Shown: in pieces, positions 4,758 to 5,065 of the stretch
How positions within the stretch are numbered: position 1 is the first letter of the stretch
Layout: each line of letters opens with the position of its first letter
Origin: Escherichia phage PinkRuby
Sequence record: PP925839.1
Direction: 5' to 3' (one strand)
DNA: 64,000 nt
Translations under genes and position numbers: made by a program
Notes under the pieces: model-generated
What the model was told of the DNA's origin: nothing
The model's database searches: none
What the model saw: only the letters and a program-made list of their open reading frames with translations

Positions 4758-4802
4758 CCTCGCGGCAACCTTGTCGGGGTTCCACCTGCTAAGGCAAGTG
4801 TT

Positions 4803-4898
4803 TGTACGAAACGCCGGGATTCGAACCCGGTTATTAAGCAGTTGACGCTACTCAATATTTTTAAAAGGCCATATCTCGACCATATCCGAACGTTCCGT
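4803..4898 (-). ncRNA. candidate tRNA-like small RNA (8-bp acceptor-like stem plus perfect T-arm)
   Basis: Minus strand has CCGGG-UUCGAAU-CCCGG; ACGGAACG (about 4898-4891) can pair with CGUUUCGU 3' of the T-arm; body non-canonical; lies in a 385-nt ORF-free gap. Confidence 0.3.
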
Positions 4899-5065
4899 CA
4901 AAAACGCTACTCGGCTTACGGCAAAGATATTTCCTCGAATCGATAATTCGGTGCGCCGTTTCTGCTGTGATGTAAGAGGGCATCAACAAATCATAAAGAT
5001 TTATTAACACAATTCCTTACTCAGGGAACATCAGTCCGACGACTTACCGGTAGCGATCCGGTTTC

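Follow-up and report, generated by a model that had tools for sequence, protein, structure and literature searches.

We analysed a window of 64,000 nucleotides (nt; the whole stretch of DNA presented here) from Escherichia phage PinkRuby (PP925839.1), a T4-like phage of Tequatrovirus, and found that the region downstream of its transfer RNA (tRNA) genes very probably holds the orthologs of phage T4 rnaD and rnaC as the last genes of the tRNA operon, with rnaC taking up a tRNA-like four-way fold. Both are already known as small stable RNAs of T4 from the 1970s and are annotated in GenBank, which makes their appearance here a rediscovery. An earlier note on the same DNA, made from the letters alone, had described a tRNA-like element in this region. 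It offered three readings: a small, stable RNA resembling tRNA, like those reported close to the tRNA genes of T4; a decoy or processing signal; and a decayed tRNA. The first of these agrees with the orthologs of rnaC and rnaD found here; the element itself corresponds to the 3′ two-thirds of rnaC.

The identification rests on position and on sequence identity (positions are those of the window, and descending coordinates denote the minus strand). ARAGORN placed eleven minus-strand tRNA genes in the window (6455..5435), which are followed on the same strand by an open reading frame (ORF) of 116 amino acids (aa; 5416..5066), a stretch of short ORFs reaching to 4681, and a 157-aa ORF. In blastn searches, 381 nt of this stretch matched 803 phage records, mostly at 90-99% identity, and the features under the matches were “rnaC” and “rnaD” where annotators had looked: rnaC is annotated at the aligned site in the records of RB9, RB68, RB27, T2L, and T4, and rnaD in those of RB9 and RB68. 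The layout in RB9, RB68, and T4 (NC_000866) is the same, with the tRNA cluster leading to rnaD (“species II RNA”) and then to rnaC (“species 1 RNA”). Boundaries were transferred from these annotations (T4, RB9, and RB68 for rnaD; T4 for rnaC), which puts the rnaD (species 2 RNA) ortholog at about 5069..4950 (~120 nt), a GAAUUA spacer (AAAUUA in T4) at 4949..4944, and the rnaC (species 1 RNA) ortholog at 4943..4805 (139 nt; 155 bits with model R1). Aligned to T4, rnaC is identical at 137 of 139 bases (NC_000866 70908-71046) and rnaD at 110 of 119 (71053-71171). Across 750 phage records, the identity of rnaC is 95% or higher in 683. Downstream of rnaC, a 3′ trailer (4802..4755) with small hairpins such as CACUUGC-CUUA-GCAGGUG is conserved in T4, and is followed by the intrinsic terminator of the tRNA operon (4754..4726), a 10-bp G+C-rich hairpin (4754..4731) with UUUUU behind it. 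The order from the tRNA genes through rnaD and rnaC to the terminator is therefore that of T4, where rnaC likewise comes between rnaD and the trailer and terminator, on the downstream side of the tRNA cluster.

In T4, the transcript of the tRNA cluster ends after the species I RNA gene (PMC2330249), and RNAC and RNAD were detected as “RNAs of yet unknown functions” that are expressed late and are stable and abundant (PMC9697503); another report states that their “biological roles are unknown” (PMC3014915). T4 RNAC was confirmed by northern blot, with a probe whose sequence falls within 4943..4886 of our window (PMC9697503). No Rfam 15 family matched rnaC or rnaD, even at permissive thresholds, with noise and a sub-threshold tRNA-Sec match as the sole returns.

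rnaC is a tRNA-like four-way junction of an acceptor stem, a hairpin I, a hairpin II, and a T arm, and this fold has been kept by compensatory change. The full 139-nt RNA folds to a minimum free energy (MFE) of -50.2 kcal/mol (z = -4.55); in the MFE structure, the tip of the long hairpin is formed by pairing of ACGGAACGU with the upstream GCGUUUU, and the 3′ strand has its partner at the extreme 5′ end of rnaC. Homologs came from Kanagawavirus (Entb_45), Moonvirus (Moon), Karamvirus (Pet-CM3-4), Tegunavirus (fHe-Yen9-01), Gelderlandvirus (Melville), Klebsiella phage kv_tblp5, Mosugukvirus (Pectobacterium PM2), and additional IMG/VR contigs, and pairs were counted on sets of 9 and 15 sequences, covering about nine genera of T4-like phages. 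The same four-way junction was obtained with RNAalifold on a MAFFT alignment of the 9 sequences, where 26 of 41 pairs were compensatory. Overall, 93% of cells were paired among the 9 sequences and 92% among the 15, compared to ~40-50% and ~38-49%, respectively, when partners were slid by 1-3 columns as a control. Double changes were seen at 27 (9 sequences) and 29 (15 sequences) of the 43 pairs. None of 500 shuffles reached the observed values on any of five measures for the smaller set; for the larger set, none did so on four measures and two did on the remaining one.

The tRNA-like frame runs from C4942, the +1 position of the acceptor stem, to A4803, the end of U-ACA. The 5′ strand of the acceptor-like stem is CGAUUCG (4942..4936; rnaC positions 2-8; pair probabilities 0.78-0.97) and its 3′ strand CGUUUCG (4813..4807; positions 131-137), which abuts the T stem as in tRNA. 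Covariation here includes C:G to A:U at pair 1 and A:U to G:C at pair 3, and the tandem U.U at pairs 4-5, present in 12 of the 15 sequences, becomes U:A plus C:G in Tegunavirus and U:A plus U:A in PM2. Hairpin I (4935..4866), an irregular 70-nt rod in the position of a D arm, comprises five helices that are 85-100% paired among the 15 sequences, with 16 of 21 pairs compensatory; in Melville, the Klebsiella phages, and PM2, its sequence is replaced and its length kept. A single-stranded linker, UUUAAAAA (4865..4858), follows, and the AAAAAU motif at 4862..4857 is nearly invariant. Hairpin II (4857..4832), in the position of an anticodon or variable arm, has a 10-bp stem (8 of 10 pairs compensatory; 94.7% of cells paired) and a 6-nt CGUCAA loop that hardly varies across homologs (CGUCAA, CAUCAA, or CGCCAA). 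One unpaired A separates it from the T arm CCGGG-UUCGAAU-CCCGG (4830..4814), whose 5-bp stem is 100% paired in the 15 sequences, with two covarying pairs, and whose 7-nt loop is canonical; in this fold the arm stacks on the acceptor stem. The discriminator-like U and ACA occupy 4806..4803, while the T4 annotation ends at A4805; after the discriminator U, CCA is encoded in kv_tblp5, L026/L030/L031, and PM2, UCA in Tegunavirus, and ACA in PinkRuby. Mapped on this fold, the two substitutions that distinguish PinkRuby from T4 are an unpaired one in hairpin I and a change of U-A to U.G in hairpin II.

In Kanagawavirus-type rnaC (L004, L010, L020, and L022), the T loop UUCGAAU is changed to UGCAUGC together with a change of the junction from UGGCC to UCGCC. 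The unpaired GG at the base of hairpin I (4870..4869), which is CG in Kanagawavirus, is thus hinted at as a candidate partner of the T loop, from a single event: the paired change of T loop and junction is what would be expected of a D-loop/T-loop “elbow” contact.

Outside Tequatrovirus, rnaC is placed much like a tRNA gene. It starts 6-7 nt after the CCA end of the upstream tRNA in Moon, Pet-CM3-4, Melville, Entb_45, and kv_tblp5, and its discriminator base lies 7-15 nt before the next tRNA in Moon, Pet-CM3-4, Melville, PM2, and fHe-Yen9-01; distances of this kind are typical for tRNA genes that form part of an array. In five other genera, it sits inside tRNA arrays and not at the operon end. 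The spacer GAAUUA together with U4943 in PinkRuby matches the 6-7-nt A/U-rich spacers (AAUUAU, AAUAAU, and similar) found elsewhere between a tRNA CCA and rnaC. No rnaD was found between the upstream gene and rnaC at the Moon, Karamvirus, Gelderlandvirus, Kanagawavirus, kv_tblp5, PM2, and fHe-Yen9-01 loci. Conversely, in JS98 (Dhakavirus; L062 590-830), rnaD is directly followed by the same trailer and terminator, with no rnaC between them. Taken together, these arrangements indicate that rnaC and rnaD are separable, independent modules.

More distant candidates were also considered. A metagenome scan with the pattern GGCCNNNNAAAAAN{18,28}TAACNNGGNNC proved too loose and gave chance matches, and none of 80 loci among the matches listed was positive with model R1. 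A weak R1 match in phage Moon (L017 1073-1188) was explained by two ordinary tRNAs lying side by side. On two unrelated viral contigs, L202 (2898-3000, plus strand) and L190 (12398-12511, minus strand), we observed RNAs, 103-114 nt long, that combine a terminal stem and GGUAAC with a canonical T arm; one of them lies 25 nt upstream of a tRNA-His. Their matches to the rnaC model were weak (28 and 19 bits, respectively), ARAGORN called neither, and their folding z-scores (-1.3 and -1.8) were not significant.

rnaD, a structured RNA in its own right, is distributed differently from rnaC and has a rod-like body. The hairpin at its 5′ end (CCGG-AUCGCUA-CCGG) is conserved, whereas the apical one varies; folded as a single sequence, rnaD gives z = -2.8. 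In eight homologs, whose conserved cores align, RNAalifold predicted 29 pairs, 7 of them compensatory, and the sequence of the apical hairpin is replaced in MLP2/SP1 and in P479/JS98 and still paired. Compared to T4, the apical hairpin of PinkRuby rnaD differs by several substitutions and small indels, whereas the 5′ and 3′ cores are conserved. Its 3′ end reads ...GGCGCACC followed by G here and by A in T4, so that the 3′ flank is CACCG here and CACCA in T4. The T4 end (...CACC plus A) with AAUUAU behind it mirrors the tRNA-CCA plus AAUUAU upstream of rnaC in Moon, which places rnaD at the position of a tRNA 3′ end. At the other end, T4 rnaD follows tRNA-Arg by one base, whereas in PinkRuby, as in RB68, the 116-aa ORF lies between tRNA-Arg and rnaD, and segB is absent. 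The TAA stop of this inserted ORF (5068..5066) overlaps the rnaD 5′ end, so its messenger RNA and rnaD must be separated by processing. The ORF (5066-5416, minus strand; phrog_3355, unknown function) is also present in MLP2 and SP1 as well as RB68, and is absent in T4 and RB9.

Several other readings of the stretch have to be weighed against this picture, and the closest of them concerns the acceptor stem. The earlier note had joined an internal segment, ACGGAACG (4898..4891), with CGTTTCGT (4813..4806) in an 8-bp helix with one G-U; these pairs can indeed form in the PinkRuby sequence, but they are not the conserved acceptor pairing. Were the helix real, it would define an independent tRNA-like RNA of ~93 nt (4898..4806, with ACGGAACG pairing to CGUUUCGU at 4813..4806) or an alternative conformer of rnaC. 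The 94-nt fragment folded alone does take this shape (z = -2.8 at -30.8 kcal/mol), the alignment to the Rfam tRNA-Sec model spans exactly 4806..4898 (16.6 bits), ARAGORN makes calls of a like kind in two homologs, although their isotypes disagree (Met for L205, Phe for L006), and 80% of the cells of the helix are paired across homologs. Yet 456 of 500 shuffles pair as well, a single compensatory cell with no covariation was found in 15 homologs, and five of the eight pairs remain in Melville and PM2 (three mismatches, read by eye in alignment A5). The ACGGAACG segment covaries instead with the upstream GCGUUUU (5 of 6 pairs compensatory), and the partial conservation of the helix arises because the 3′ acceptor strand CGUUUCG resembles this GCGUUUU, the 5′ strand of the hairpin-I tip. 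Forcing the helix on the full rnaC costs 13 kcal/mol (-36.9 versus -50.2 kcal/mol), its pair probabilities are 0.0, and the annotated rnaC starts 45 nt upstream of 4898. We therefore regard the ~93-nt element as very unlikely, and the fold given here is corrected relative to that stem, although parts of it may already stand in the classical papers on species 1 and 2. Another reading, in line with the note’s decayed tRNA, is that the stretch holds tRNA pseudogenes, or the remains of one tRNA gene, that have no function and are left to drift; it could draw on the location in a tRNA array, the perfect T arm and acceptor stem, the degenerate CCA (ACA), and the lack of a usable anticodon loop. Drift is nevertheless hardly credible given the preservation of the 43 rnaC pairs, the identity of at least 95% in 683 of 750 records, the compensatory substitutions that keep the non-tRNA hairpins I and II, lengths included, across genera, and the accumulation of rnaC in T4 infection (PMC9697503).

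That the stretch encodes small proteins is, in our judgement, extremely improbable. ORFs of 49, 53, and 81 aa do exist, and many records have a “hypothetical protein” feature beneath the match. However, consistent with the note’s view that there is no credible ORF, all three start with TTG or GTG, with one ATG start across eight relatives (in JoYop), and their starts and lengths differ between close relatives, the plus-strand 81-aa ORF being absent in all seven relatives checked. The frame is also broken by the rnaD indels, the short ORFs vanish in other genera where tRNAs flank rnaC directly, and the substitution pattern is paired rather than three-periodic. It could be argued instead that the structures are cis-acting processing or termination signals of the tRNA operon only, the excised RNAs being by-products without a function in trans, since rnaD and rnaC lie at the 3′ end of the operon beside the terminator and RNase P and RNase E readily enter at tRNA-like shapes. 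Deletions of the T4 tRNA region are reportedly viable in laboratory hosts. We consider this reading improbable: five other genera carry rnaC within an array, either RNA can be present without the other, and the CGUCAA loop and AAAAAU linker are conserved though unpaired. Together with the constant length of hairpin I, these unpaired elements speak for a trans-acting partner and against a mere by-product. Moreover, both RNAs are stable and abundant late in T4 infection (PMC9697503), and rnaD acquired a convergent adaptive single-nucleotide polymorphism (SNP) when a T4-like phage adapted to a semi-permissive new host in a 2025 evolution experiment (PMC12685909).

Other observations of the earlier note were borne out. 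The T arm CCGGG-TTCGAAT-CCCGG that it pointed to is present and conserved at 4830..4814, so that of the two helices it described, the T stem is conserved throughout the homologs and the proposed acceptor is the part that did not hold. Its candidate loop GTCAACT (4846..4840) lies within hairpin II, as does the second copy (GAGUAGCGU) of a motif it had seen twice; the two copies of GAGTAGCGT (4912..4904 and 4853..4845) are the sole ones in the 64-kb window, where 0.07 would be expected by chance. The T-loop motif GGTTCRANYCC occurs 12 times in the window compared to 0.18 expected, ten times in tRNA genes and once in rnaC. The sole match outside the tRNA/rnaC region (30875..30885, minus strand) is antisense to a 610-aa ORF, has no flanking stem, and was judged to be due to chance.

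With canonical tRNA, rnaC shares a 7-bp acceptor stem formed from both ends, an abutting 5-bp T stem with the 7-nt UUCGAAU loop, a candidate discriminator base with a putative (C)CA, a four-way junction, and tRNA-gene-like placement and spacing. It differs in being about twice the size (139 nt), in having the 70-nt rod for a D arm and a 10-bp arm with the 6-nt CGUCAA loop lacking U33, and in the tandem U.U of the acceptor stem and, here, the ACA end. The D arm of tRNA, its 5-bp anticodon stem, and its 7-nt loop with U33 and a purine at position 37 are absent. ARAGORN called no tRNA in the interval, and the Rfam tRNA model had no match; the covariance-model search did return tRNA-Sec, with 16.6 bits against a gathering score of 47. 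Thus rnaC works like a tRNA mimic yet is not itself a tRNA, having no D arm, no anticodon arm, and no detector call. Transfer-messenger RNA (tmRNA), through its tRNA-like domain, and YrlA likewise fuse an acceptor/T-arm module to non-tRNA helices and are handled by tRNA enzymes. ARAGORN found no tmRNA, there is no tag reading frame, and the Rfam tmRNA models had no match in 4690..5080; YrlA (RF02553) had no match in the interval at E-values up to 10, with weak matches confined to true tRNA genes. The ends of YrlA form a Ro-binding stem, whereas those of rnaC form the acceptor stem. The likeness of rnaC to tmRNA and YrlA is one of working principle only and not one of membership.

From established tRNA biology, we infer that rnaC is excised by the tRNA-processing machinery. 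Host tRNA-maturation enzymes would release it from the polycistronic tRNA transcript: RNase P would cut at the base of the acceptor stem, where U is found at position -1 in 13 of the 15 homologs, and 3′ exonucleases would shorten the other end as far as the discriminator region, perhaps along with CCA repair. Being shaped like a tRNA might then account for the metabolic stability of rnaC, and the two non-tRNA hairpins might be displayed to a partner. Species 1 RNA was reportedly 140 nt in length, which would fit C4942..A4803, and its long hairpin is said to be a substrate of RNase III in vitro.

Several points weigh against this view of the locus. The sampling covers about nine genera of one subfamily, and hence many of the “compensatory cells” are inherited from few events. 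The processing enzymes proposed for rnaC are suggested by its anatomy alone. As annotated in T4, rnaC has its first base one position 5′ of the cut predicted for RNase P and its last base within ACA; the mature ends may therefore differ from the tRNA-like frame. The tandem U.U and the lack of an intact CCA in most homologs, including PinkRuby, would weaken recognition by some tRNA enzymes, and one lineage (Kanagawavirus) has a non-canonical T loop.

A more far-reaching model, which we put forward tentatively and consider rather unlikely, would make rnaC an L-shaped tRNA mimic whose T loop docks on the GG at the base of hairpin I, and which engages a tRNA-binding host factor in trans, whether as a decoy, a sponge, or an adaptor. 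rnaC would be matured, and perhaps CCA-tailed, like a tRNA, with hairpins I and II carrying the specificity; candidates for the host factor would include defence nucleases that target tRNA, tRNA-modifying enzymes, and factors associated with the ribosome. In the same model, rnaD would be independently mobile and affect host range, as is hinted at by its convergent SNP (PMC12685909). No recent literature linking T4 RNAC or RNAD to tRNA mimicry or defence was found. If true, the model would assign a role to two 50-year-old orphan RNAs. Independently of it, the covariation-supported fold gives a concrete basis for experiments on an RNA of unknown function since the 1970s, and the differing distributions of rnaC and rnaD across T4-like genera allow the two to be treated as separable modules.

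The results are also of practical value for annotation pipelines, in which the rnaC/rnaD locus is mislabelled. In most of the ~800 related genomes, this spot is either left blank or labelled as a “hypothetical protein” or as a long tRNA (Lys, Met, or Phe) that is spurious. The spurious tRNAs called in rnaC homologs are 95-96 nt in length, e.g., L205 8491-8585 (minus strand), L006 747-842 (plus strand), and GenBank records MK327940 and OQ599310; they use the internal 5′ strand of the earlier note’s helix, and their isotypes are inconsistent (Met, Phe, and Lys).

Immediately after the operon terminator, TATAAATA at 4717-4724 (minus strand), the T4 late-promoter consensus, stands ahead of two paralogous ORFs of 157 aa (4207-4680) and 187 aa (3518-4081), both on the minus strand and both assigned to phrog_2280 (unknown function). 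Their N-termini, MKSYAQFLNEA and MKTYAEFLTEA, resemble the capsid-targeting sequence of T4 internal proteins.

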